NCBI GenBank assembly: GCA_029858565.1
Contig: JAOUEV010000075.1
Location: forward strand, 1-13,300
Source of the DNA: Nitrospirota bacterium
Lineage (GTDB): Bacteria > Nitrospirota > UBA9217
Length of the DNA: 13,300 nucleotides
Direction of reading: 5' to 3'
The translations under genes and the position numbers were made by a program. Position 1 is the first letter of the stretch, and the number at the start of each line of letters is the position of its first letter. Of the stretch, positions 1,762 to 13,155 are shown piece after piece. The notes below the pieces were generated by a model that searched no databases, was not told the origin of the DNA, and was given only the letters and a program-made list of their open reading frames with translations.

Positions 1762-2085
1762 TTATTTCCGCTTCTTCTCCGCAACGACATCCTCCACCCA
1801 CGACAAGGCAGCCGAAACCGTGGGGAAGCCGATGGTGCTGGTAAGAAGTATGACCGCGTGGCGGACCTCGTCGGGTTTCGCGCCCGCCAGGATCGCCCGG
1901 CGCGCGTGGGAGTGGACCGAGCCTTCGGACCGGACCGCGGCTGCGGCTGCGAGCTGGATCAGCTCAGCGGTCTTCTTGTTCAGGGGGCCGGCGGCCTTGG
2001 CGGCCTTGCCCAGGTTGTCAACGGCCTTGAGCACTCCCTTGTAGCGCTTCTGAAGCATCAGGTACTGCGTGGGGTATTCCTTCAT
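1762..2085 (-). CDS. Carboxymuconolactone decarboxylase / AhpD-like family protein (no CxxC)
   Basis: GPLNKKTAELIQLAAAAAVRSEGSVHSHARRA..AGA...EV...V.L...TIGFP pattern typical of the CMD family; SD AAGGAG upstream. Confidence 0.88.
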   Translation of the reverse strand: MKEYPTQYLMLQKRYKGVLKAVDNLGKAAKAAGPLNKKTAELIQLAAAAAVRSEGSVHSHARRAILAGAKPDEVRHAVILLTSTIGFPTVSAALSWVEDVVAEKKRK

Positions 2086-2200: not shown

Positions 2201-3046
2201 TCATCGCGCCGGCTGCCGGGCCGCCGGGGACACATCCTCGATGGTCCGCTTTTCCTCGGAGGGCTGCAGGATGTTCATCAGTTTGCCGCCTGCCAGGAGC
2301 GCCAGCAGCAGCAGGATGCCGATCACGACCGCGATGACGAGCTTCCGGGACGAGGCCGCTTTTTGCTTCTCAGCGGCCGGGCCGGAATCGGTCTTGTCCT
2401 TCAGCTGTACTGTCGCGGCCTCGTCAGGATTCCAGAAGGCCTTGTAGACCTTGAAGGGCTCGGCTTTTCCCTTCAGCGTCGTGGTCTTGACGTACTTGAT
2501 GTAGGTCTCGTTCCTGTTCGAAAGGGCGTTCAGCGTGTCCTCGGACAGGGCGATCCCGCCGGGGTCTGCCGCGCCTTCGAACCGCGAAGCAGTGTTCACC
2601 ACGTCGCCGAAAATGTCGCTCTTTTCCACGATGCATCTGCCGGTGTGCATGCCCGCGCGGGCCAGGATCGGCGTTTTCTGCTTGTGCTCAAGGATGTAGG
2701 CGTCGATGCCCCGCTGGAGCTGGACAGCCGCGCGCAGGGCGTCCTGGGCGTTGTCGAAATAGGACAGCGTGCCGTCGCCGATGGACTTGACGAATATGCC
2801 GTGGTGCTCCTTGATCGCGGGGATGATGATGTCCTGATAGTGCTTCACCAGCAGGCGGCTGACGATGTCTCCCTGCTTGTCGGCCAGCGCGGTGGAACCC
2901 TTCAGGTCCGTGAACATGACAGTGATGACCTTGGTGAACTTGTCCTGGAAGGCGGCGTCCATCTTTGCACGGGATTCGAGCATTTCCTCCATTTCCCGCG
3001 CTTTGTCCTCGGCTGATTTCTGCTCCCTCTCCATATCGTCCGACAT
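2201..3046 (-). CDS. Class III adenylate/guanylate cyclase (adenine-specifying residues) with C-terminal TM anchor
   Basis: VMFTDLKGST (metal Asp), VKSIGDG (Lys and second Asp), SDIFGDVVNTASRFE (Asp, Asn, Arg) and LKGK. Charged helical N-terminus; hydrophobic LVIAVVIGILLLLALLAGG near the C-terminus; SD AAGGAG. Confidence 0.9.
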   Translation of the reverse strand: MSDDMEREQKSAEDKAREMEEMLESRAKMDAAFQDKFTKVITVMFTDLKGSTALADKQGDIVSRLLVKHYQDIIIPAIKEHHGIFVKSIGDGTLSYFDNAQDALRAAVQLQRGIDAYILEHKQKTPILARAGMHTGRCIVEKSDIFGDVVNTASRFEGAADPGGIALSEDTLNALSNRNETYIKYVKTTTLKGKAEPFKVYKAFWNPDEAATVQLKDKTDSGPAAEKQKAASSRKLVIAVVIGILLLLALLAGGKLMNILQPSEEKRTIEDVSPAARQPAR

Positions 3047-3058
3047 ATGCGGTCTCCT

Positions 3059-3892
3059 TTACTCTTTCCTCTTCCAGTCCCAATCAATATACCACGTGAG
3101 ATAGAACTCGAATCCCTTGGTACGCTCTTCCAGTATGGGATAATACTGCCAGGAGTAATCAGCTCCAATGCGGTACAAAGGTTTCTTGAGCTCCATGCCC
3201 ACCGCGGGTCCGCGGACATCATAATAGTCCTCAAGCTTCGAACGGGCCCGGTACCGGTACTCGGCGTAGGTATTCAGCACAAAACCGCCGGGCAGGGTGG
3301 TCCAGTCGATCCCCTGGTTGATCCAGCCCATGCCGCCGGAGCCGGTGACTCCCCGGGTATCATGGAACAGATTGAACCAGATCGCTCCCGGCAGGCCTGT
3401 TGATCCGGGAAAATGCACATCCGCATTTTTGGTCAGGTCCCATCCCTTGTATCCAGCCAGGTAGATCTCCCGGCTGGTCGTGCGGCGCGGTCCGTCGGGG
3501 TAGTTGGGCATGGTCTCCCAATAATAGTCCGCCCCGAACCTGAGGAAGTCCTTCTTGAACTCCATACCCACAGCCGGACCCTGGGCGCTGTAGTACTCGG
3601 GCTGGCGCGACCGGTCGCGGTACCGGTATTCGGCAAAGGTGTTCAGCACCACATCGCCGGGCAGGGTGACCCAGTCGATCCCCTGGTTGATCCAGCCCAT
3701 GCTCCCGGAACCGCTCAGGGTGCTCGAACTCTCGGTTACTACGCCCCAGGTGGAGCCGGGGTAGCCTTCGATCTCCCAGGCGAAAGCGCGATGCGGGAAA
3801 CAGAGCATGAGCGTGATGCATCCCAGGAAGAGGATAGTCGGCGTCATGCGCATTTCTGGGAGTTGTTCTTTTCTATGTTCAATCGATGACAT
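3059..3892 (-). CDS. Secreted, probably outer-membrane beta-strand-rich protein made of two tandem repeats of about 123 aa
   Basis: Signal-peptide-like segment (ILFLGCITLMLCFPHRAFA/WE). Two copies of MGWINQGIDWxTLPGxxVLNT(F/Y)AEYRYR...GPAVGME(F/L)KK...R(F/I)GADY.W, with alternating aromatic/polar strands. The start is uncertain: the ORF opens at 3931, the ATG at 3892 has AAGGA upstream, and ATGs at 3853 and 3847 are also possible. Confidence 0.7.
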   Translation of the reverse strand: MSSIEHRKEQLPEMRMTPTILFLGCITLMLCFPHRAFAWEIEGYPGSTWGVVTESSSTLSGSGSMGWINQGIDWVTLPGDVVLNTFAEYRYRDRSRQPEYYSAQGPAVGMEFKKDFLRFGADYYWETMPNYPDGPRRTTSREIYLAGYKGWDLTKNADVHFPGSTGLPGAIWFNLFHDTRGVTGSGGMGWINQGIDWTTLPGGFVLNTYAEYRYRARSKLEDYYDVRGPAVGMELKKPLYRIGADYSWQYYPILEERTKGFEFYLTWYIDWDWKRKE

Positions 3893-3934
3893 AGCTTCAT
3901 TCCTTAGAGCTCCCGGTGCTCTCTGCGCCAAAGC

Positions 3935-5491
3935 TCACTTCAGCGCCTCCCGGGACAAGTATATCCATTTCCGTTCCTTTCCGTAGAAGTAATACTCATC
4001 ATCCATCTTCACCACCAGGTTGTTCTGGTTCTCCGCTGCAAAGGATGTCTGCGGAATGCTGTCGATGAATGCCCGGGTGGCATAGCGGTCCGTGACAAAG
4101 GGGCTTTGCCCGGCAAAGGCCTCGATCGTGAACGCCAGGGAAAGATAGCTCGACGGCTTGTCTATGATCATGTTTCTGCCGGCCGCCCCGGTCCGGCGGT
4201 CCTTGCTGATCAGCTTCAACCCCACGGGCACGATGGTGATGCGGGGCAGGGGGATGTCGCGGAGCCCCGGCGTTTCTATGGCATTGCCGCGCACCGCCCT
4301 GCCGTGCTCTCCCGCGACGATCACCAGTACATCCCGTCCCGAGGCCGCGAGGGTCCCCATGAACCTCGAAAGGTCGTCAAGAAGGCTCTGGAGAAATTCC
4401 CGATACTGCTCGCGATTGTCCCGCTTCCACCACTCCCGGTCGTCGGTCCAGTGGGACCCGTCATGAAGGCTCACGGAATTATAGTACAGGGCGACCTTCT
4501 TCTCGCTTGACCTCAGGCGGTTCTTCCACCATTGTTCGAGCACGTCATAGTCTGCATAGACCGGCGTATCGTCGAACATGTACTTCCTGGCCTCCAGGTT
4601 CGACGGCGCAAAAGGCGCGGCGTCCAGGTGGCCCAACTGCCGGAGCTCCTGGTCGAATTTGCCATAGGTGCCGTTATGATTGCGGCTGAACCGGATCGCG
4701 TATCCCTGGTGACCCAGTCCCTTCATGAGCGAGCAGTCCCCGGGCAGGGTGTTGTACAGGTCGGCGTGCCTGCGCTGGCCGCAGTTCCCGTTCAGGAGCC
4801 TGATGGCCGCGGGATTGCTGTAAGTGGTTACGGTATTGAAGTTGGTGAACAGGAAGTCGAACTGTTTGAAGAATGGATGGTCCTGCATGCCCAGTTCCCG
4901 GAGATCGTCCCAGGCAAGGGAACAGATATGGAGGATGAGAATGTCGAAGTCCCGCGACGTTGCCTGCGGCGGCACCGGCCGGATGACACGCATGGACTCG
5001 GCATTGAAGAACGACCGGACATGGGCATCGACCTCATCAGGAGATCTCCTGCCGTGTTCGCCGGTGACGAAGACCAGCGGGATCAGAAGCAGGACTGCCA
5101 TGCCTGTTGCAGCCGATCTTCGGTACTTGCGGACAAGGAAGGACAGGACCGCGATAACGGTAAAGACCGCAAGTTCTTTCGGCACAAGGAGCCTCAGGAA
5201 GAATTGATAGAGATATTCCCGCGAAGGCATGCCGTTCTGCTGAAGCATGGTGATGGCATGCAGGGGGTCCGGAAGCCAGGACTCGCGCCAGATCAGCAGA
5301 ACAGCGATGATCATCGCCAGTGCCTGCTTTGCCATGAGCGCCAGCGTGCTTTCGCCAAAGCGCTTCGGCAAGGGGAAAACGATGAACGCGAGGAACAGCA
5401 GGTTCAGGAGCACATCAAGACGCACGTATCCCCGGTAATGGAGATAGAGCTTGGCCAAGAAGTAGAAGGTCCAGATTCCCATAGGTGTCAC
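3935..5491 (-). CDS. bcsG: Cellulose phosphoethanolamine transferase BcsG
   Basis: N-terminal TM region beginning MGIWTFYFLAKLYL; FDILILHICSLAWDDL; TTYSNPAAIRLL..CGQ (catalytic Ser); SLHDG; GEHG; GLRDIP. The start is GTG 5491 or ATG 5482. Confidence 0.93.
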   Translation of the reverse strand: MTPMGIWTFYFLAKLYLHYRGYVRLDVLLNLLFLAFIVFPLPKRFGESTLALMAKQALAMIIAVLLIWRESWLPDPLHAITMLQQNGMPSREYLYQFFLRLLVPKELAVFTVIAVLSFLVRKYRRSAATGMAVLLLIPLVFVTGEHGRRSPDEVDAHVRSFFNAESMRVIRPVPPQATSRDFDILILHICSLAWDDLRELGMQDHPFFKQFDFLFTNFNTVTTYSNPAAIRLLNGNCGQRRHADLYNTLPGDCSLMKGLGHQGYAIRFSRNHNGTYGKFDQELRQLGHLDAAPFAPSNLEARKYMFDDTPVYADYDVLEQWWKNRLRSSEKKVALYYNSVSLHDGSHWTDDREWWKRDNREQYREFLQSLLDDLSRFMGTLAASGRDVLVIVAGEHGRAVRGNAIETPGLRDIPLPRITIVPVGLKLISKDRRTGAAGRNMIIDKPSSYLSLAFTIEAFAGQSPFVTDRYATRAFIDSIPQTSFAAENQNNLVVKMDDEYYFYGKERKWIYLSREALK

Positions 5492-5571
5492 TCGTGCATT
5501 TCAGGATGCGATCCGGCCTAAAGAACAGTATTGAACCGCCACGGCGCCATGGAAGCGGGTAAATCTCCTCA

Positions 5572-6618
5572 TCACCTCGCTCTATTTTCCCATCCCCCTG
5601 TCGCGAGCAGATAAAGACTGAAGGAATAGTAAGCGTCCTTCTCGGTCTTGAGTCTTTTCCGCGCCTCTTTCAGGAGGCGTTCCGCGAGCGCCTTCTTGCC
5701 CAGTTTCCGGGCGGCAGCAGCATAGATGGCGTAGTACCCGGCGTAAGCGAGTTTGAGCGATTCGCTGTCCTTTTCCAGATCGATCCAGAGCGGCAGCCTG
5801 CCGCTTTTCTGGTAGTGCTCCAGCAGAGCTGAAACGCCCTTGGGATAGCGCGAACGGTCCTCGGACCCAAGCATGAGCAGGACGCGGACAGCATCTGCCC
5901 CGAAGTAGGGGTCCTTTCCCGGCGCAAGCGCGATCCGGTCGTTTTCCAGGACCACCCAGTTCGCAGGAAGGCCGAGGCTCCCGAAACTCGCCCCCTTGAT
6001 CAGGAACAGGCCGTCATTGCGCACCGCCTCCCAGAAGTCCGGTTGGTCCGCCCTGGCAAAGGCGCGGTATGCCGGGAAGATCAGGTACGAAGGATTCAGC
6101 ACCACGCTGTTACCGTCCGTGAATCCAAAGGCTCCGGGCAGCAGATAGGTGCGGCCGTACCGGGTGACCGCAAGGACCGAGCGGATGCTCGCGATGATCT
6201 TCCGCGCCTCCTCACGATAGTCCGGCGAGTGCCAGGCATCGCTCGCCTTGAGCAGGGCGAAAGCGATCAGGATATCGCCGTCGGTCGCATTGTTGCTGTC
6301 GAGCACCTTCCATGCATTGTCCGGCCTTTTTCCCCATTGCCAGGCGAACAGACCGTCGGAACGGACCTGGAGATTATTCTTTGTCCAGGTCCAGATCCTG
6401 TCAAAGGCGGCCCGGTCCCGGTGGATCGTTGCCAGCAACATGCCGTAACCCTGGCCTTCGGAATGGCTGATCTGGTCCTGGGCGTGGTCGATGATCCGTC
6501 CATCGTCGCTCAAAAAGGACCTCTTGTAGAGCTCCCACATCGTCCGGTCCCGTGCCTCAGCGATGCCGCAGAAGACGGCAGTAAGTACGAGGCAGAGGCT
6601 AATGGCCCGGAGTGGCAT
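5572..6618 (-). CDS. bcsZ: GH8 endo-1,4-beta-glucanase BcsZ
   Basis: Signal peptide; SEGQGYGML; FDRIWTWT; NNATDGDILIA; LNPSY; DAVRV. Overlaps the end of bcsB by 20 nt. Confidence 0.93.
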   Translation of the reverse strand: MPLRAISLCLVLTAVFCGIAEARDRTMWELYKRSFLSDDGRIIDHAQDQISHSEGQGYGMLLATIHRDRAAFDRIWTWTKNNLQVRSDGLFAWQWGKRPDNAWKVLDSNNATDGDILIAFALLKASDAWHSPDYREEARKIIASIRSVLAVTRYGRTYLLPGAFGFTDGNSVVLNPSYLIFPAYRAFARADQPDFWEAVRNDGLFLIKGASFGSLGLPANWVVLENDRIALAPGKDPYFGADAVRVLLMLGSEDRSRYPKGVSALLEHYQKSGRLPLWIDLEKDSESLKLAYAGYYAIYAAAARKLGKKALAERLLKEARKRLKTEKDAYYSFSLYLLATGGWENRAR

Positions 6619-8743
6619 CGCCCCCCCCCATCCGCTGTTTCCTGCGCTTCTTCAACCAAATATAAATGATCCCGCCGAATAGCACGATCGCCAGGGACAG
6701 CAGGATATAGTTGACGTATTTGTATTTGTAGAAGAAGTACTCGAGCTTGAACAGCGTTCCCGACGTTCCGGTATAGTAAGCCGGCCCGGCGGTCACGGCG
6801 TTCATGGTCTGCGAAGGGTCCTTGAGATTGATCAGCACCAGATCGCCCCGGACGCGGTCCTGCACCACCGGATCAAGCAGCGCCCGGCTCAATGCCGCGA
6901 CCTCCGTCACTCCGGCGCCGGTCAGCATGACCACGGATCTGCCGGTCTGGACCGGGGACTGGAACTGCATCACGATTCCCTGGTCCGGTCCGGGCGTGCT
7001 CGTCTGTCCGCTGAAGGCAAAGGTGGATTCGCTTTCCCAGTTGCGGACCACCGGGTAGGGGACGTTCTTTGCCGTGGCCAGCTTGAGCGGCGCCAGGTTC
7101 AGCAGGTCCTCGGGGATGGTCGCCACGTCGCCGAGCACGATCATCTCTCCTTTCCAGCGTTCGGGCCGTTCAAAGCTGACCGTTATGCCGAAGAGCGGAT
7201 ATCCGTTCTTCTGGCTGATCAGACCCACGAGGTTGAGCGCCGCGGAAAGGGTGTCGAAGTCCTTCCTGCTGGCGAAGATCACGGCTTCATATCCGTCGGG
7301 CCACCGGGTGACCGGGAATCCGTCGAGCATGAACAGCTCGAGCTTCGGCATCTCCACGAAATGAGGCATCCTGGGGAACTGGAAGGTGGAATTCTCGAAT
7401 ATGGTCAGGAAGAATCCCTCGGGCCGCAGGATATCGCATTCCTGCGCAACGGGATTGAGCGTGGGCTCGAAGCGGATCGTGTTGTAGCCCGGCTTGAAGA
7501 GATAGGTCGGCAGGTCGATGCGGTAGCCTTCGACGCTCTCTCCGTCCTGGTTCTCCAGGTGGATGACCCGGACGCTCCGGTCGTTGACCACGACGTTCAT
7601 GACCGAGTCAACGCGCATGCCCGCGCCATAGGCGAAGTTCAGGTTCAGCTTGGCGTACTGGTTCGGCTTCACCAGAAAGTCCGCGGGCAGACGGAAGGAG
7701 ATGTGGCGCGGATTGGGATTGAAGCCCGAGAAGGTGTGGCTGCTGAAGTTCAGCATTTTCAGCGTGTAGACCTTTTCGGTCGCAAGGATCTGCCTGCCGC
7801 CGTACTGGGAGATGTCGGGCAGCTTGAAGTCCCTGACGGTCATCTCGCTGCTCCCGGGGAAGGGAAGACTGACGTGAGCGAGCGTTTCCGACGCGAGCTT
7901 GATCTCCTCGGGCGTGTTCCCCGAGACGACCAGCAGGGCATGGCCCGGGTCGTACCCGCCGGAGAGCAATGGCAGCGGAAGGATCTTCAGATAGGGGCCC
8001 TTCACGGAAATGTTCATTCCCCGCTGCTGCAGGAACGACTCGGCATAGGCCTTGTTGGCGATCAGGACATTGTCCACTCCCGGCTGAAGCTCCCGGGACG
8101 CCGTGAACAGCACCTTGCGGTAATCGAACTTCCTGGCTATGCCCGCAGCGGCGATGGCGGTCATGGTGGCGGTGTCCGAGGCGAGGCCGGCGGTGATCAT
8201 GTGCACGCTGCCCTGCGGCATGACCCGCGGATCGAACAGGAAGTCGGAGAGCGTCGAGAGACGCATGGGCACGGGCTTCAGATCGTAGGTGAGCTCCAGG
8301 GACGAGTCGTAGAGGTTCACCGTGGTCCAGAGGTTCGGGGCGCATACCTGTTCGCACTCGGCCGCGTAGTGCTGCACCGCAACGATGTTCATCATGTTGT
8401 AGCCGGGATGCAGGATCTGAGGCGCGATGTTCAGTTGTTTCCTTCCCGACGGCGTCTTGCGGTCCAGCCGGATCTGGCCGAGCGGCTTGCCGTTCATGGT
8501 GACGAGCAGATGGGAACGGTCGCCCATCATGCTGGCGGAGTTGGCATAGTCCAGCGTCAGCACCGCCTTGGTCACGTTCCAGCGCTCAGGCACGGGCACC
8601 GCGATCTCGTACTGGCCCTGGGTGCACCGCAGGTCGACCGACGTGACCGGCGCGAGCTTGGTCAGGGGCACCTTGTAGACCTCTGCCTGGGCCGGCGCGG
8701 CCAGGCACCATGCTGCGATCGTTGCAATGATGAGCTTTTTCAT
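6599..8743 (-). CDS. bcsB: Cellulose synthase periplasmic subunit BcsB
   Basis: Signal peptide; two jelly-roll repeats ending HPGYN and KPGYN; QHYAAEC...LWT; FRLPADF; Cys at the BcsB disulfide positions; C-terminal TM followed by KKRRKQR. ATGA overlap with bcsA. Confidence 0.9.
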   Translation of the reverse strand: MKKLIIATIAAWCLAAPAQAEVYKVPLTKLAPVTSVDLRCTQGQYEIAVPVPERWNVTKAVLTLDYANSASMMGDRSHLLVTMNGKPLGQIRLDRKTPSGRKQLNIAPQILHPGYNMMNIVAVQHYAAECEQVCAPNLWTTVNLYDSSLELTYDLKPVPMRLSTLSDFLFDPRVMPQGSVHMITAGLASDTATMTAIAAAGIARKFDYRKVLFTASRELQPGVDNVLIANKAYAESFLQQRGMNISVKGPYLKILPLPLLSGGYDPGHALLVVSGNTPEEIKLASETLAHVSLPFPGSSEMTVRDFKLPDISQYGGRQILATEKVYTLKMLNFSSHTFSGFNPNPRHISFRLPADFLVKPNQYAKLNLNFAYGAGMRVDSVMNVVVNDRSVRVIHLENQDGESVEGYRIDLPTYLFKPGYNTIRFEPTLNPVAQECDILRPEGFFLTIFENSTFQFPRMPHFVEMPKLELFMLDGFPVTRWPDGYEAVIFASRKDFDTLSAALNLVGLISQKNGYPLFGITVSFERPERWKGEMIVLGDVATIPEDLLNLAPLKLATAKNVPYPVVRNWESESTFAFSGQTSTPGPDQGIVMQFQSPVQTGRSVVMLTGAGVTEVAALSRALLDPVVQDRVRGDLVLINLKDPSQTMNAVTAGPAYYTGTSGTLFKLEYFFYKYKYVNYILLSLAIVLFGGIIYIWLKKRRKQRMGGGDATPGH

Positions 8744-11043
8744 GGCAGGGACTCACTCCTTTTCATACGGGCATGGTATGCCTGCAGCCGGAGCACAAGG
8801 GCATGCAGGCGGATCCTGGCGGTTGGCAAAGCTGATTTGGCAAGGTACGCGATCCGCTCGGCGCTTCCCCGCGCTCCGCGCAGCATGAAATGATAGAGGT
8901 CGCGGGACGTGAAGCGGATGGAATGCACCGGTTTGAACCGGTCCGCAAGGATGTCGGCCCAGCGCTTGCTGTCGCCGTACACGAAATTCACGATGTCCGG
9001 GTAGGTCCTGTCGTCGAGCGCGAACTCGATGCCCATGTGGGTCCGTCCGGCCTGCTCCCTGCGCGAGCGGATGCGCGAGATGAGGTTGTGGCGGATGCCG
9101 TAGCTGTCCGTGGCCTCCACGCGCACGTCCTCGCCCAGGAGCGCGGGGAAAAGGTCGTTCAGTTCCACGCCGATGCCGGTCAGGGACAGGTCGTGGATCG
9201 TGCCCGGGATCGTGCGGTCCAGGTCGGGAAAGTACACGTCAACCGAGCCTTTTGACCGCACGCGGTGGTGCTGGCGGAGCTGCTGCCGCTCCCAAAAAGC
9301 CCCCAGCGTGATGAGCCCCAGCAGCAGGTTGTAGAGACACCACACAAAGGCGATAAAGATGACGTCGCGGAACAGGGGATAGGCCACCCACTTCACCGCA
9401 GCGAACCCGATGCCGATCAGGTTCAGCAGGCAGATCATGAAAAAGACCGTGGCCATGGGGTTCAGGTACTCGTGATCAACGGTCTTGCCCTTGGGTGTGA
9501 TCTTGAACTTGGGCTTCCGCGGGTTGAAGATCGCGGAGATGACCGCGGGCGTGAGGAAGAGCGCCTGCACGCTCTCGTAGATCTCCGAGAAGAATCGCCT
9601 GCGGTAGCGGCCGTAGAAGAAGTCCATGACTGTGAAAACGCTCAGCACGTGGGGCAGGGCGTAGGCAACGATCTGGGCCACCGAGGCGTGGTAGACCTTC
9701 TGGCCCAGGATCAGGAACAGGCCGGGCCCCAGGTAGAAGGTGAACCGGGCCAGGCAGAAGAGCCAGAAGAAACAGGCGTTGAAATAGCACATCTTCTGTT
9801 CCCAGGACAGGCCTTTTGCGAAGAGCGGGTTGTTCAGCACGAAGATCTGGACCATGCCCTGGGCCCAGCGCGTGCGCTGGACGATATAGTCGCCGAAGGT
9901 CTCGGGTGAGAGGCCGCAGATCATGGGCCGGTCGATGTACACGCTGTTGTAGCCCTTGTTGTGCAGCCGGAGCGAGGTCTCGGCGTCCTCGGTGATGGTC
10001 TCGCCCGCGATGCCGCCGGCGTCCACCAGGAACTGCCGACGCAGGACCGCGGCGGAGCCGCAGAAGTACGCGGAGTTCCAGAGGTCCATGCCCGGCTGGA
10101 TCGCGTGGTAGAACATGTCGTTCTCGCCCGGAGCGTTGGAGAAGGAACCGATGTTCTTCTCCACCGTGGTGGTGTTGATGAAGAAATGCGGTGTCTGGAC
10201 CAGGAAGAGCTTCGGGTCCTTCAGGAACCAGCCCGCGGTGTTCTTCAGGATGTCCCGGGCAGGCACGTGGTCGCAGTCCAGGAGCAGCAGCAGGTCGCCG
10301 CTGATCTTGGTCAGCGCGTGGTTGATGTTGCCCGCCTTGGCGTGTTCGTTGTTCTCCCGGGTCAGGTACCGCGCGCCCAGGTCCCGGGCGATGCGCCGGA
10401 GCTCGTAGTAGCGCTCCCAGGCCGCGGTCGAGGTCTCGGGAGCGCTCCGCCGGCTGTCCGTGCTGCCGTCGTCGAGAACGTAGACGTTCACCTTGTCCCG
10501 GGGATAGTCGATCTGCATTGCTGCGGTCACGGTCAGCTTGATGATCTCCGGATCCTCGGTGTAGGTCGGGATAAGAATATCCACGGAAGGATAGACCGAC
10601 GGATCGTCGGGCAGCGGGGCCGGCTTGCTCTCGAGCGGCCAGAGGCTGATGAACATGCCGAGGAAGTGGATCGTGAGGGAATAGCATTCGGCAAGATAGA
10701 TGAGCAGCATGCCGATCATGTCCAGCGGGCCGGTGTAGATCAGCGTGTCAAAGGTCCTCCAGAGGAAGTAGCGGAAGGAGATGACCGCGACCGTGAAGAT
10801 GAAGAGGAACCGGCCGGGCGCGTTGCCAAAGGATGCCCGGCGGTTCAGGATGATGGCAACGATAAGGAAGCCCCAGCTGAAGGTGGACTCGGCCGGGACA
10901 TTCAGGAACCGGTCCAGAAGATAGATCACCAGCACGACGCCGCCGGTCAGGAGGCCGTAGAAGGCCGCGGGACGCAGAACGTTCTCGCTAAAGGGAATGT
11001 CCTTGTGCGGGCTTTCAGTATGCAGCGCCGGACTGGGGTCCAT
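8740..11043 (-). CDS. bcsA: Cellulose synthase catalytic subunit BcsA (GT2 + PilZ)
   Basis: IPTY, LDDG, HAKAGNIN, DCDH, QTPH, FCGS, TED, QRTRW, FKITPK gating loop, and PilZ motifs RQHHR and DLSLTG. The ORF is open from TTG 11220, but its first 59 codons look non-coding, so ATG 11043 is preferred. Confidence 0.95.
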   Translation of the reverse strand: MDPSPALHTESPHKDIPFSENVLRPAAFYGLLTGGVVLVIYLLDRFLNVPAESTFSWGFLIVAIILNRRASFGNAPGRFLFIFTVAVISFRYFLWRTFDTLIYTGPLDMIGMLLIYLAECYSLTIHFLGMFISLWPLESKPAPLPDDPSVYPSVDILIPTYTEDPEIIKLTVTAAMQIDYPRDKVNVYVLDDGSTDSRRSAPETSTAAWERYYELRRIARDLGARYLTRENNEHAKAGNINHALTKISGDLLLLLDCDHVPARDILKNTAGWFLKDPKLFLVQTPHFFINTTTVEKNIGSFSNAPGENDMFYHAIQPGMDLWNSAYFCGSAAVLRRQFLVDAGGIAGETITEDAETSLRLHNKGYNSVYIDRPMICGLSPETFGDYIVQRTRWAQGMVQIFVLNNPLFAKGLSWEQKMCYFNACFFWLFCLARFTFYLGPGLFLILGQKVYHASVAQIVAYALPHVLSVFTVMDFFYGRYRRRFFSEIYESVQALFLTPAVISAIFNPRKPKFKITPKGKTVDHEYLNPMATVFFMICLLNLIGIGFAAVKWVAYPLFRDVIFIAFVWCLYNLLLGLITLGAFWERQQLRQHHRVRSKGSVDVYFPDLDRTIPGTIHDLSLTGIGVELNDLFPALLGEDVRVEATDSYGIRHNLISRIRSRREQAGRTHMGIEFALDDRTYPDIVNFVYGDSKRWADILADRFKPVHSIRFTSRDLYHFMLRGARGSAERIAYLAKSALPTARIRLHALVLRLQAYHARMKRSESLP

Positions 11044-11260: not shown

Positions 11261-11269
11261 ATTATAACA
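11261..11269 (-). promoter_or_regulatory. Extended -10 promoter for the bcs operon (TGtTATAAT)
   Basis: The minus strand reads TGTTATAAT, a perfect -10 hexamer with a TGn extension, about 217 nt upstream of the bcsA ATG at 11043. Confidence 0.6.
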
Positions 11270-11327: not shown

Positions 11328-12530
11328 ATGATAATCATCGAACCATATGGTGCGCGGCCGGTAACGGACCAGCGGGTGGAGATCGTTGAGCGCAAGGGCG
11401 TGGGCCACCCGGACACGCTTTGCGATTCCATGATGGAGGCGGTATCCATCGCGCTCAGCAGGGAATACCGCAAGACCTTCGGCACGATCCTCCATCACAA
11501 CATCGACAAGGGCCTGCTCGCCGCGGGCAGGGTGGAGAAGCGTTTCGGCGGCGGCAAGGTGACGGAGCCCATGGACCTCATCATCGGCGACCGGGCGACA
11601 TGGTCGGCCGGAAAGAAGCGTATTGACGTTGAAAAGATCGCTGTCGCCGCTGCGCAGGAATGGCTTGGCAGGAACATGCGCTTTGTTGATCCCAAGAAGC
11701 ATGTGCGCTATCGGGTCGTGCTGCGCCAGGGGTCCGAGGAACTGACGGATATCTTTTCACGCAAAGGGAAGGTCCTTGGCGCGAATGACACCTCTGCCGC
11801 AGTGGGGTATTACCCCTTAAGCCCCACGGAGCAGGCAGTGCTGGGGCTGGAGCGTTTTCTCAATTCAGCTGACTTCAAGAAGATCTTTCCCGAGACCGGC
11901 GAGGACATCAAGGTCATGGGCCTGCGAACAGGAGATGACCTGGACATCACGGTGGCCATGCCGATTCTGTGCAAGTACGTAAATTCGGAAAAAGAGTACT
12001 TTGTGCGAAAAGCGATCATCCAGCGGATCATGGAAGGTTATCTTGACAGGTTCACCAGCTTCAAGTCTGCGGCGGTCAACTTCAATACCCTTGATGTGAT
12101 TGGCAGGGATATGAACGGCATTTACCTCAGCCTGCTCGGCACCTCAGCCGAGGACGCGGACTCGGGCCAGGTGGGCCGCGGCAACCGCGTGAACGGTCTC
12201 ATCTCGTTGAACCGGCCCATGGGTACGGAAGCGGCCGCAGGCAAGAACCCCGTAAGCCATGTAGGAAAGATCTACAACGTCCTGGCCCATAGGATCGCGC
12301 AGCGCATATATAAGGAAGTAGGCGGCCTGCGGGAAGTGCAGGTGCTGCTGCTCTCGCGCATTGGCGCGCCGATCAATGAACCCCAGACAGCCTCGGCGCA
12401 GGTGCTGCCGGTCAAAGGAAAGGTGACGGGTTCGATCGTCAGAAAAGCGGAGAAGATCATGCAGCGGGAGCTGAATGGGATCGCGAAGTTCTGCGGGGAG
12501 TTGAGCAGGGGGGATTATCCGGTGTGCTAG
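11328..12530 (+). CDS. mat: Archaeal-type S-adenosylmethionine synthetase (methionine adenosyltransferase)
   Basis: EIVERKGVGHPDTLCD, ILHHNIDK, ANDTS, GEDIKVMGLR, GTSAEDADSGQVGRGNRVNGLI, EAAAGKNPVSHVGKIYN and SRIGAPINEP are motifs of the archaeal MAT family. Canonical bacterial MetK instead has ESVTEGHPDK and GAGDQG. Confidence 0.93.
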   Translation: MIIIEPYGARPVTDQRVEIVERKGVGHPDTLCDSMMEAVSIALSREYRKTFGTILHHNIDKGLLAAGRVEKRFGGGKVTEPMDLIIGDRATWSAGKKRIDVEKIAVAAAQEWLGRNMRFVDPKKHVRYRVVLRQGSEELTDIFSRKGKVLGANDTSAAVGYYPLSPTEQAVLGLERFLNSADFKKIFPETGEDIKVMGLRTGDDLDITVAMPILCKYVNSEKEYFVRKAIIQRIMEGYLDRFTSFKSAAVNFNTLDVIGRDMNGIYLSLLGTSAEDADSGQVGRGNRVNGLISLNRPMGTEAAAGKNPVSHVGKIYNVLAHRIAQRIYKEVGGLREVQVLLLSRIGAPINEPQTASAQVLPVKGKVTGSIVRKAEKIMQRELNGIAKFCGELSRGDYPVC

Positions 12531-12584
12531 GAACGCGGCGCTGACGCGCCGCATGGCGCGTCGCAGTCGAGCGCCAGGTTATTT
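12528..12584 (-). mobile_element. Integron attC site (57 bp), last of the array
   Basis: The minus strand reads AAATAAC-CTGGC-GCT(C)GAC-TGCGAC-GCGCC-ATGC-GGCGC-GTCAGC-GCCGC-GTTCCTA: R'' AAC, 5-nt spacer, L'' with one extra base pairing to L', a terminal hairpin, and R' GTT. It overlaps the stop codon of the cassette ORF. Confidence 0.85.
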
Positions 12585-13077: not shown

Positions 13078-13098
13078 CGTGGCTCCTATTCAATACAA

Positions 13099-13155
13099 AA
13101 ATAACACGGCGCTGACGCGCCTCAAGGCGCGTCGCAGTCGAGCGCCAGGTTAATT
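13099..13155 (-). mobile_element. Integron attC site (57 bp)
   Basis: The minus strand reads AATTAAC-CTGGC-GCT(C)GAC-TGCGAC-GCGCC-TTGA-GGCGC-GTCAGC-GCCGT-GTTATTT. Only 3 differences from 12528-12584 in the 43 nt between the core sites, two of them in the loop. Confidence 0.88.

Follow-up and report, generated by a model that had tools for sequence, protein, structure and literature searches.

The DNA analysed here (hereafter the window) is a 13.3-kb contig of 13,300 nucleotides (nt; JAOUEV010000075.1) from a Nitrospirota genome of the UBA9217 lineage (assembly GCA_029858565.1), which comprises 3.92 Mb in 144 contigs and is 100% complete with 0.5% contamination. Open reading frame (ORF) analysis places six tightly packed genes on its minus strand over positions 2201-11043, in the order bcsA-bcsB-bcsZ-bcsG-orf5-cyclase. 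Our data make it probable that this operon encodes a complete, non-canonical cellulose secretion system, gated by cyclic di-GMP (c-di-GMP) and exporting its polymer through a new barrel family, represented by orf5, that replaces BcsC. The six genes are as follows.

bcsA, 8740..11043, minus strand: predicted c-di-GMP-gated cellulose synthase catalytic subunit, 767 amino acids (aa) from the ATG at 11043
bcsB, 6599..8743, minus strand: periplasmic co-catalytic subunit, 714 aa; 4-nt overlap with bcsA
bcsZ, 5572..6618, minus strand: GH8 periplasmic endoglucanase, 348 aa; 20-nt overlap with bcsB
bcsG, 3935..5491 (start at 5491 or 5482), minus strand: putative phosphoethanolamine transferase, membrane-anchored member of the alkaline-phosphatase superfamily, 515-518 aa; preceded by an 80-nt gap
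orf5, 3059..3892 (start at 3892 or 3853), minus strand: predicted secreted 12-stranded outer-membrane beta-barrel of an unnamed family; preceded by a 42-nt gap if the ATG at 3892 is used
cyclase, 2201..3046, minus strand: predicted tail-anchored class III nucleotidyl cyclase, 281 aa; preceded by a 12-nt gap

BcsA, the product of the sole cellulose synthase gene in the genome, matched TIGR03030 with 803 bits (cut-off 699.1) and carries a PilZ domain (PF07238, 39 bits), and BcsB matched PF03170 over profile positions 4-606 (383.6 bits). The operon thus has what defines a bacterial cellulose synthase operon, a BcsA above its curated cut-off with PilZ and an adjacent BcsB. By these matches the two proteins are a cellulose synthase pair, predicted to be c-di-GMP-gated because BcsA bears PilZ. 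BcsZ was recognised by the GH8 family model (PF01270, 218.9 bits) and scored 210.7 bits against the BcsZ model NF008305, below its cut-off of 299. None of the six frames is truncated or interrupted, and their catalytic motifs are conserved; the bcsA ATG is preceded by GGGAAGAGAG, and the bcsA frame is open as far as 11220. In operon order, the junctions are overlaps of 4 and 20 nt followed by gaps of 80 nt, at most 42 nt and 12 nt, and neither terminator-like sites nor promoter-like matches were found inside any intergenic gap of the operon. From this spacing we infer that the six genes are co-transcribed. A first-pass annotation of the DNA had described six co-directional, packed genes, and its coordinates, overlaps and gaps were all reproduced.

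The same annotation held that the system lacks bcsC, bcsQ, bcsE and bcsF, and profile searches of the 100%-complete genome bear this out, the BcsQ matches being ParA-like. The BcsC barrel (PF05420) had no match anywhere in the genome, nor in orf5, and BcsE (PF10995) had none in the genome; for BcsF (PF11120), a short protein for which search power is limited, there was no genome match at E ≤ 0.1. In control genomes, the BcsC and BcsE models were positive only in E. coli, and only there did the BcsF model pass its cut-off. The BcsQ model gave four matches in the genome, and it was also positive in 14/14 control genomes; the best match is ParA, with 228 bits against AAA_31 versus 41 bits against BcsQ. 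Judged by these scores, the BcsQ-like matches are generic P-loop ATPases or ParA proteins and include no dedicated BcsQ. A search of the genome for BcsS found no match, though the control was equally silent. Among the traits of type II Bcs systems, BcsG is present here, while BcsE, BcsF and the BcsG-recruiting domain of BcsA were not found, and the traits of BcsC (a C-terminal BCSC_C barrel and TPR repeats on the same polypeptide) are both absent from the 264-aa orf5.

Our analysis of orf5 points to an outer-membrane barrel that belongs to no named family. The protein is secreted, with a predicted signal-peptide cleavage site between AFA and WE (between AxA and IEG in the family consensus). 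It matched no Pfam or NCBIfam family and, in a family profile search, no PDB sequence at E ≤ 10; a Pfam scan of all 37 aligned members of the family likewise returned no family. Its two halves are 53% identical (60/114 residues, E 6e-40), and this internal 6+6 repeat is, together with the conserved motifs NQGIDW and EYRYR, specific to the family. An AlphaFold2 model built from the alignment of 37 homologues (predicted local distance difference test score, pLDDT, 94.5; predicted template-modelling score 0.82) has 12 strands after the signal helix, six per repeat. The top Foldseek matches and most of the top matches from VIA, which is independent of Foldseek, were outer-membrane barrels. They included the BrkA beta-domain (Z 12.5), PcoB (Z 12.1; 183/198 residues, root-mean-square deviation 3.9), the oligogalacturonate porin VhGalP (Z 10.9), KdgM (Z 9.5), NanC (Z 8.7) and the PgaA secretin (4y25, Z 8.2), with sequence identities to orf5 of 4-15%. 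OMPLA (Z 8.6) and two enzymes acting on lipid A, PagL (Z 9.7) and LpxR, were also among the fold matches. On this model, orf5 is a predicted 12-stranded outer-membrane barrel of an unnamed family. The first-pass annotation had called it barrel-like; the barrel stands, and the model and homologues refine it to a 12-stranded outer-membrane barrel that is TPR-fused in relatives.

Other identities for orf5 were rejected. Homology to the BcsC barrel is ruled out by an hhalign probability of 0.1% between the orf5 family and five same-phylum BcsC barrels, and by the missing PF05420 match. A protein atlas look-alike score of 0.93 for BcsS proved unsupported: hhalign against six BcsS proteins gave 4.7% and aligned signal peptides only, and no PF17036 (BcsS) match was found among the 37 family members at E ≤ 10. 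The sequence LFLGC near the N-terminus raised the possibility of a lipoprotein, but the Cys lacks conservation and the family shares an AxA site ahead of IEG, and we rejected this reading.

The orf5 family has few members (112 clusters at 90% identity in a near-length search; 177 representatives at E ≤ 0.001 among 1.84 billion), and these take three forms. The first is the stand-alone double repeat of ~255-300 aa found in the window. The second consists of single-repeat proteins of ~113-165 aa, one of which was modelled by AlphaFold2 as a monomer of six strands (pLDDT 86). Such half-size homologues (among them protein representatives P0098-P0112 and P0150, loci L021-L023 and L025, and genomes G039, G082, G130 and G185) would, on that model, need to oligomerise for the barrel to close. 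In the third form, the family makes up the C-terminal domain of long proteins. TPR Pfam domains are present in 10/10 longer homologues from a word search, and TPR matches occur in 14 of the 18 listed representatives of 688-1459 aa with a C-terminal orf5 domain. At locus L024 and in the same-phylum genome G194, the gene order is cyclase-bcsA-X-bcsB-bcsZ-[TPR::orf5 domain]-bcsG. The fusion in these relatives is the architecture of BcsC, at the usual position of bcsC, and because the 12-stranded barrel occurs TPR-fused in this way, we regard orf5 as an analogue of BcsC.

A tree of single repeat units (alignments A1 and A3) did not separate first and second repeats into two deep clades; its subclades hold equal numbers of the two, with weak branch supports. 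This pattern suggests repeated duplication or concerted evolution of the orf5 halves. Fusion partners other than TPR also occur: in P0129 and P0141 the barrel is N-terminal and is followed by Cds6_C NTF2-like domains. Gene X, which separates bcsA from bcsB in clusters with the TPR fusion (L024:3257-4318, L043:5127-6122), is conserved, encodes 331-353 aa and belongs to no Pfam family, and its L043 copy has no NCBIfam match either; the window has no gene X, its bcsA and bcsB overlapping.

We also searched the window's genome with the TPR parts of the 18 fused forms and obtained no tblastn match at E ≤ 1e-6. Four weak matches remained (E 0.004-0.007), three of them on one TPR gene beside ispE, prs and rplY-like genes. 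Considered as an orf5 partner in this indirect search for BcsK, that gene was rejected and judged to be housekeeping.

To place the operon among its relatives, we collected 91 loci (21 from species-representative genomes and 70 metagenome contigs), 89 of which have a tblastn match to orf5; some of the loci duplicate one another and many contigs are short. A bcsG gene lies within 3 kb of the barrel gene in 61/89 loci, and most of the 28 loci without it have less than 1.5 kb of flank on one side. By comparison, bcsB is present in 15/89; of these, 10/15 have bcsG and 10/15 have a cyclase gene. Another 27 loci carry a BcsA-like synthase and no bcsB, with bcsG in 24/27 and the cyclase in 0/27; their synthases are 24-36% identical to BcsA, have two PilZ domains in the examples scanned and score 571-629 bits against TIGR03030, under its cut-off. 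In most long loci, bcsG is kept beside BcsA or a BcsA-like synthase. The window's order bcsG-orf5-cyclase is also that of L058, L060 and L059, the last with bcsZ upstream, and L080 has the orf5-cyclase portion at its contig start. One locus, L005, combines bcsABZ with the barrel, and its genome, the completeness of which is not established, yielded no bcsG. Synteny had been put forward as a check on the last two genes of the operon, and both orf5 and the cyclase are indeed syntenic in distant relatives. We note as a separate observation that a BcsB-less module of three genes (BcsA-like synthase, BcsG and barrel) is found at L006, L007, L013, L018, L019, L021, L022 and 20 further loci, recurring in Nitrospirota, Elusimicrobiota and other metagenome-assembled genomes.

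Counts at the genome level favour a barrel family in place of BcsC. In a phylum sample of 201 genomes (the window's own included), BcsB was found in 19, a BcsC-barrel match in 7, the orf5 family in 8 and BcsG in 10. Five of the BcsC-barrel matches are strong, all in BcsB-positive genomes, and the other two score 26 bits. The 19 BcsB-positive genomes divide into five with the BcsC barrel, two with the orf5 family, 12 with neither and none with both. No BcsC barrel was found in five further genomes with bcsAB and orf5 (0/5; their completeness is not established). Two of the 12 genomes with neither barrel (G063:C2, which is L054, and G158:C6, of phylum family f10) have, ~4 kb from bcsB, a ~990-aa frame that ends in a weak BcsS-like barrel (19-21 bits), and in L054 the N-terminal part of this frame looks helical-repeat-like by eye. 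BcsS-type barrels may be another replacement for the BcsC barrel.

In the system that we propose, BcsAB would polymerise the glucan and drive it across the inner membrane, BcsG would add phosphoethanolamine from phosphatidylethanolamine, and the orf5 barrel would serve as the outer-membrane exit channel, doing the job of the 16-stranded barrel of BcsC. The cyclase would be a built-in regulatory subunit in the place held in E. coli by BcsE-BcsF, a membrane-tethered nucleotide-binding pair; it would probably make cyclic AMP (cAMP) and dock to the complex by way of its transmembrane helix and the conserved tail in the periplasm. The part of exit channel is the most likely reading of the orf5 barrel, and one that we hold to be rather probable. 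The first-pass annotation had interpreted the genes as a minimal bcsABZG system with a different export route, and the sequence comparisons favour that interpretation; its phosphoethanolamine modification is still something that we infer.

That modification is probable on the evidence of the BcsG sequence. BcsG matched PF11658 with 430 bits and TIGR03368 with 408.1 bits, just under the cut-off of 410.2. It keeps the equivalents of C243, S278, H396, E442 and H443 (5/5 identical in a phmmer alignment to the E. coli BcsG chain 9b8v_B), of which we take Cys243, His396, Glu442 and His443 to be zinc ligands. Ser278 is described as the nucleophile of E. coli BcsG in the accessible text of two sources (PMC11379886; bioRxiv 10.64898/2026.09.23.753746). 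A donor lipid is plausible as well, because the genome has a phosphatidylserine decarboxylase gene.

Two features of the operon weigh against phosphoethanolamine modification. The first is the BcsG N-linker, which is nearly absent (~8 residues; query residues 141-150 align to E. coli 156-205). In the accessible part of a preprint by Li and Romling, this linker is described as spanning the last transmembrane helix to the linker helix, and as having 47 residues in Salmonella, where shortening lowered transfer progressively, and strongly once only a few residues were left (bioRxiv 10.64898/2026.09.23.753746). The second concerns BcsA: the accessible text on the E. coli complex describes an N-terminal BcsA domain of ~140 residues that recruits the BcsG trimer (PMC11379886). 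Our BcsA aligns to the E. coli-type model NF008558 only from model position 158, with ~25 residues before the first hydrophobic segment, and therefore has no such E. coli-like domain. These features, with the TIGR03368 score just under its cut-off, lend some weight to the alternative that the operon makes plain cellulose or another glucan while BcsG transfers its head group to a different acceptor. The preprint, as far as it is accessible, ties very short linkers to lost transfer and proposes other substrates for BcsG homologues of that kind, and it terms the short-linker homologues of Elusimicrobiota and a Nitrospira-related group free-standing (bioRxiv 10.64898/2026.09.23.753746). The same text expects short-linker BcsG inside bcs clusters to transfer phosphoethanolamine still, perhaps with restricted efficiency, and the window's BcsG is such an in-cluster protein. 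Since it also keeps all of its catalytic residues, is encoded between bcsZ and the barrel gene in an operon whose junctions are overlapping or short, and has homologues that adjoin BcsA or a BcsA-like synthase in most long loci, we consider a different acceptor somewhat unlikely.

Transfer outside the E. coli setting bears on this question. A chimera of Rhodobacter BcsAB with E. coli BcsG is said to have made phosphoethanolamine cellulose in vivo. The accessible part of the study of this chimera describes a test for in vivo production of phosphoethanolamine cellulose, reports that BcsF was not co-purified, and notes that cellulosic material builds up in the periplasm of the host without an outer-membrane subunit (PMC11379886).

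Other arrangements of bcsG were seen among relatives. A stand-alone BcsG, 53% identical to that of the window, occurs in two genomes of the same family as the window's genome (G170:C27, which is L044, and G105:C5), with no synthase or orf5 barrel within the fetched stretch and an Omp85-superfamily gene two genes away. At L011 (10966-12606, 12744-13841) and L015 (10801-12474), the barrel gene is separated from bcsZ by a gene for a glycerophosphodiester phosphodiesterase, joined at L011 by an alkaline phosphatase gene. The products of these genes may handle by-products of head-group transfer.

As to the channel, four observations count against our reading. The barrel tracks bcsG (61/89 loci) more than bcsB (15/89), so it could serve BcsG rather than export itself. 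The window's orf5 has no TPR part and the genome no detectable homologue of one, which leaves the reading without a bridge across the periplasm. A 12-stranded barrel is narrower than those of BcsC and PgaA, which have 16 strands. Finally, the 12 BcsB-positive genomes with neither barrel show that a missing BcsC is not enough to single out orf5 as the pore. The closer association with BcsG than with BcsB and the absent TPR bridge are the chief doubts.

The first of these doubts leads to another explanation, in which orf5 works with BcsG at the outer membrane, either anchoring or receiving the modified polymer at the surface or handling lipid in connection with the phospholipid head groups that BcsG uses, and the glucan is exported in some other way. 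Linkage fits this idea, since in 7/8 barrel-containing genomes of the phylum sample bcsG lies on the same contig within 2.6 kb, and so do the fold matches to PagL, LpxR and OMPLA and the phosphodiesterase gene beside the barrel in L011 and L015. However, the invariant residues of the orf5 family include no His or Ser, so that no hydrolase-type triad is apparent, and a C-terminal TPR fusion at the bcsC position fits a secretion pore and not a lipid enzyme. L005, with bcsABZ and the barrel and no bcsG found (in a genome of unestablished completeness), also argues against it. We therefore judge a BcsG partner unlikely and retain the exit channel as our preferred reading of orf5.

The cyclase is best described as a minimal, membrane-anchored class III enzyme. 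It matched PF00211 with 67.4 bits, and among solved chains 3mr7 and the adenylyl cyclase Ma1120 come closest. A cytosolic catalytic domain is followed by one C-terminal transmembrane helix and a conserved periplasmic tail of ~25 residues, with E265 and R267 as conserved positions. Of the homologues that cover the region, 12/13 share with the window's protein the motifs FTD, K..GDG and DIFGDVVNTASR; the L008 copy is degenerate. The protein keeps D47, D91, the K87/D144 pair and the N151/R155 pair, which we take to be metal-binding residues (D47/D91), an ATP-type substrate pair (K87/D144) and transition-state residues (N151/R155). This signature is of the adenylate-cyclase type, and the protein is not an enzyme of c-di-GMP. 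The first-pass annotation had credited the operon with its own nucleotide-signalling gene; a class III cyclase is indeed present, with the signature just given. Its restriction to bcsB-containing clusters suggests a subunit or dedicated regulator, and a regulatory role, drawn from gene co-occurrence alone, is a conjecture that tempers our proposal. The literature searched holds no account of a cyclase conserved inside bcs clusters.

A wider reading of the family is possible, and we advance it tentatively and as a single proposal. The orf5 family might be a modular outer-membrane translocon, built of 6-stranded units, for phosphoethanolamine-decorated glucans and, joined by BcsG and a synthase of the BcsA type, might constitute a class of Bcs system not described before. 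Its forms would be an oligomerising single unit, a tandem 12-stranded barrel and a TPR-fused barrel; the class would span Nitrospirota, Elusimicrobiota, Nitrospinota and Thermodesulfobacteriota; and in its BcsB branch an adenylate cyclase would replace BcsE-BcsF, linking cAMP to cellulose secretion.

Within its own family, the window's genome stands apart. The barrel, BcsB and BcsG were each found in 0/24 same-family genomes of a relatives sample (3 of them from the same genus), and the family genomes of the phylum sample yielded BcsB and the barrel in 0/44 and stand-alone BcsG in 2/44. The flanking genes are native to the genus, with 71-79% nucleotide identity in same-genus genomes. The composition of the cluster is ordinary: GC content is 0.605 versus 0.572 ± 0.033 for genome windows, and tetranucleotide distance is within the bulk, with 11% (GC) and 30% (tetranucleotide usage) of genome windows at least as extreme. 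We saw no empty site in relatives, in which the flanks lie on different contigs. The patchy distribution, and it only, suggests that the cluster was acquired by horizontal transfer. That it is a decaying or silent remnant of such a transfer with no current function, as its absence from the family might imply, is highly improbable in view of six intact, full-length frames with conserved catalytic motifs, ordinary GC and tetranucleotide usage, and native flanks.

The following features border the operon.

candidate operon promoter, 11261..11269, minus strand: TGnTATAAT, extended -10-like, ~215 nt upstream of the bcsA ATG, read by eye
methionine adenosyltransferase of archaeal type, 11328-12530, plus strand: divergent upstream gene (PF01941, 533 bits; NF003363, 643 bits)
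CMD-family gene, 1762-2085, minus strand: downstream of the cyclase gene after 115 nt

A divergent gene upstream and a new promoter downstream had been named as the boundaries of the operon. The upstream boundary holds, the gene being the methionine adenosyltransferase; the downstream promoter corresponds to a sigma-70-like match at 2160-2132, past the end of the cyclase gene, but promoter-like sites are about as frequent in the region as chance predicts (4 observed versus 2.5 ± 1.8 expected), and the same holds for terminator-like matches. The TGnTATAAT element was missed by the consensus promoter scan. An Rfam scan of the window returned nothing at E ≤ 0.1, and we therefore read bcsA as having no riboswitch upstream.

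Several observations concern the rest of the contig. The archaeal-type methionine adenosyltransferase in this bacterial genome has 71-74% nucleotide identity in same-genus genomes. Tandem genes for TrxC-like thioredoxins lie at 42-488 and 850-1308 on the minus strand, each encoding an N-terminal zinc ribbon, and the second thioredoxin has CVFC instead of the canonical CGxC active site. Short dispersed repeats occur at 588-686, 1-40 (the contig end), ~12532-12582 and 13098-13151. The ~90-nt repeat between the thioredoxin genes has dozens of counterparts in same-genus genomes (75-85% identity), and the last two repeats flank a TPR ORF.

How cellulose crosses the outer membrane without BcsC is treated as an open question in the accessible text of the field's main review (PMC8892547), and this operon with ~90 related loci offers a concrete, testable candidate for BcsC-free export. 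The literature searched, to which most subscription journals and preprint supplements did not belong, contains no account of the orf5 barrel family or of a bcsABZG-barrel-cyclase cluster. The operon also presents BcsG outside its E. coli context, without BcsE, BcsF or the BcsA recruiting domain and nearly without a linker, and so bears on the synthesis of phosphoethanolamine cellulose. Our data revise one view found in the accessible part of the preprint discussed above: the Nitrospirota and Elusimicrobiota BcsG proteins that it terms free-standing seem mostly to adjoin a BcsA-like synthase and a barrel (bioRxiv 10.64898/2026.09.23.753746). As a six-gene system in a single operon, the cluster is in addition a compact starting point for the engineering of modified cellulose.

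Among known systems, the type II clusters of E. coli and Salmonella (bcsRQABZC with bcsEFG) share with the window a core of BcsA-PilZ, BcsB, BcsZ and BcsG, including conserved BcsG catalytic residues. In contrast to them, the window system lacks BcsC, BcsE (named as a distinguishing component of type II systems in the accessible text of PMC8892547), BcsF, a dedicated BcsQ and the BcsA recruiting domain, has almost no BcsG N-linker, and keeps all of its genes in one operon together with two extra ones, for the barrel and the cyclase. Like orf5, BcsC is an outer-membrane barrel encoded after bcsZ, and relatives of orf5 are TPR-fused at the same operon position; the orf5 model, however, has 12 strands from two repeats and not 16, and the protein has no PF05420 match and no TPR part, making it an analogue of BcsC and not a member of its family.

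Other synthase-dependent systems (AlgK with AlgE, PgaA and PelB) pair a TPR scaffold with a barrel, either within a single chain or as two proteins. The orf5 family follows the same split-or-fused logic, yet no sequence relation to them was found, the match to PgaA (4y25) reflects the general barrel fold only, and the unfused orf5 of the window has no identifiable TPR partner in the genome. The best structural matches (the KdgM, NanC and VhGalP porins, autotransporter beta-domains and PcoB) have the same strand number and a comparable size. The likeness to the porins (Z 8.7-10.9) is structural only, since orf5 matches neither a Pfam family nor a PDB sequence. BcsS (PF17036), an accessory protein of some bcs clusters and itself uncharacterised, is like orf5 small, secreted, barrel-sized and bcs-linked, but orf5 does not match its family model. 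The cyclase shares with Ma1120 of Mycobacterium avium and 3mr7 the catalytic domain, metal-binding Asp residues, Lys/Asp pair and Asn/Arg residues; it differs from them in its minimal architecture, C-terminal membrane anchor, conserved periplasmic tail and linkage to bcs clusters.

Type III Bcs systems resemble the window system in part. As described in the accessible text of the review, they are defined by the absence of BcsD, BcsE and BcsG, and with BcsK and no known porin they are, like the window system, without BcsC, and their route across the outer membrane is treated as an open question (PMC8892547). Unlike them, the window operon has BcsG and contains its own candidate porin gene.

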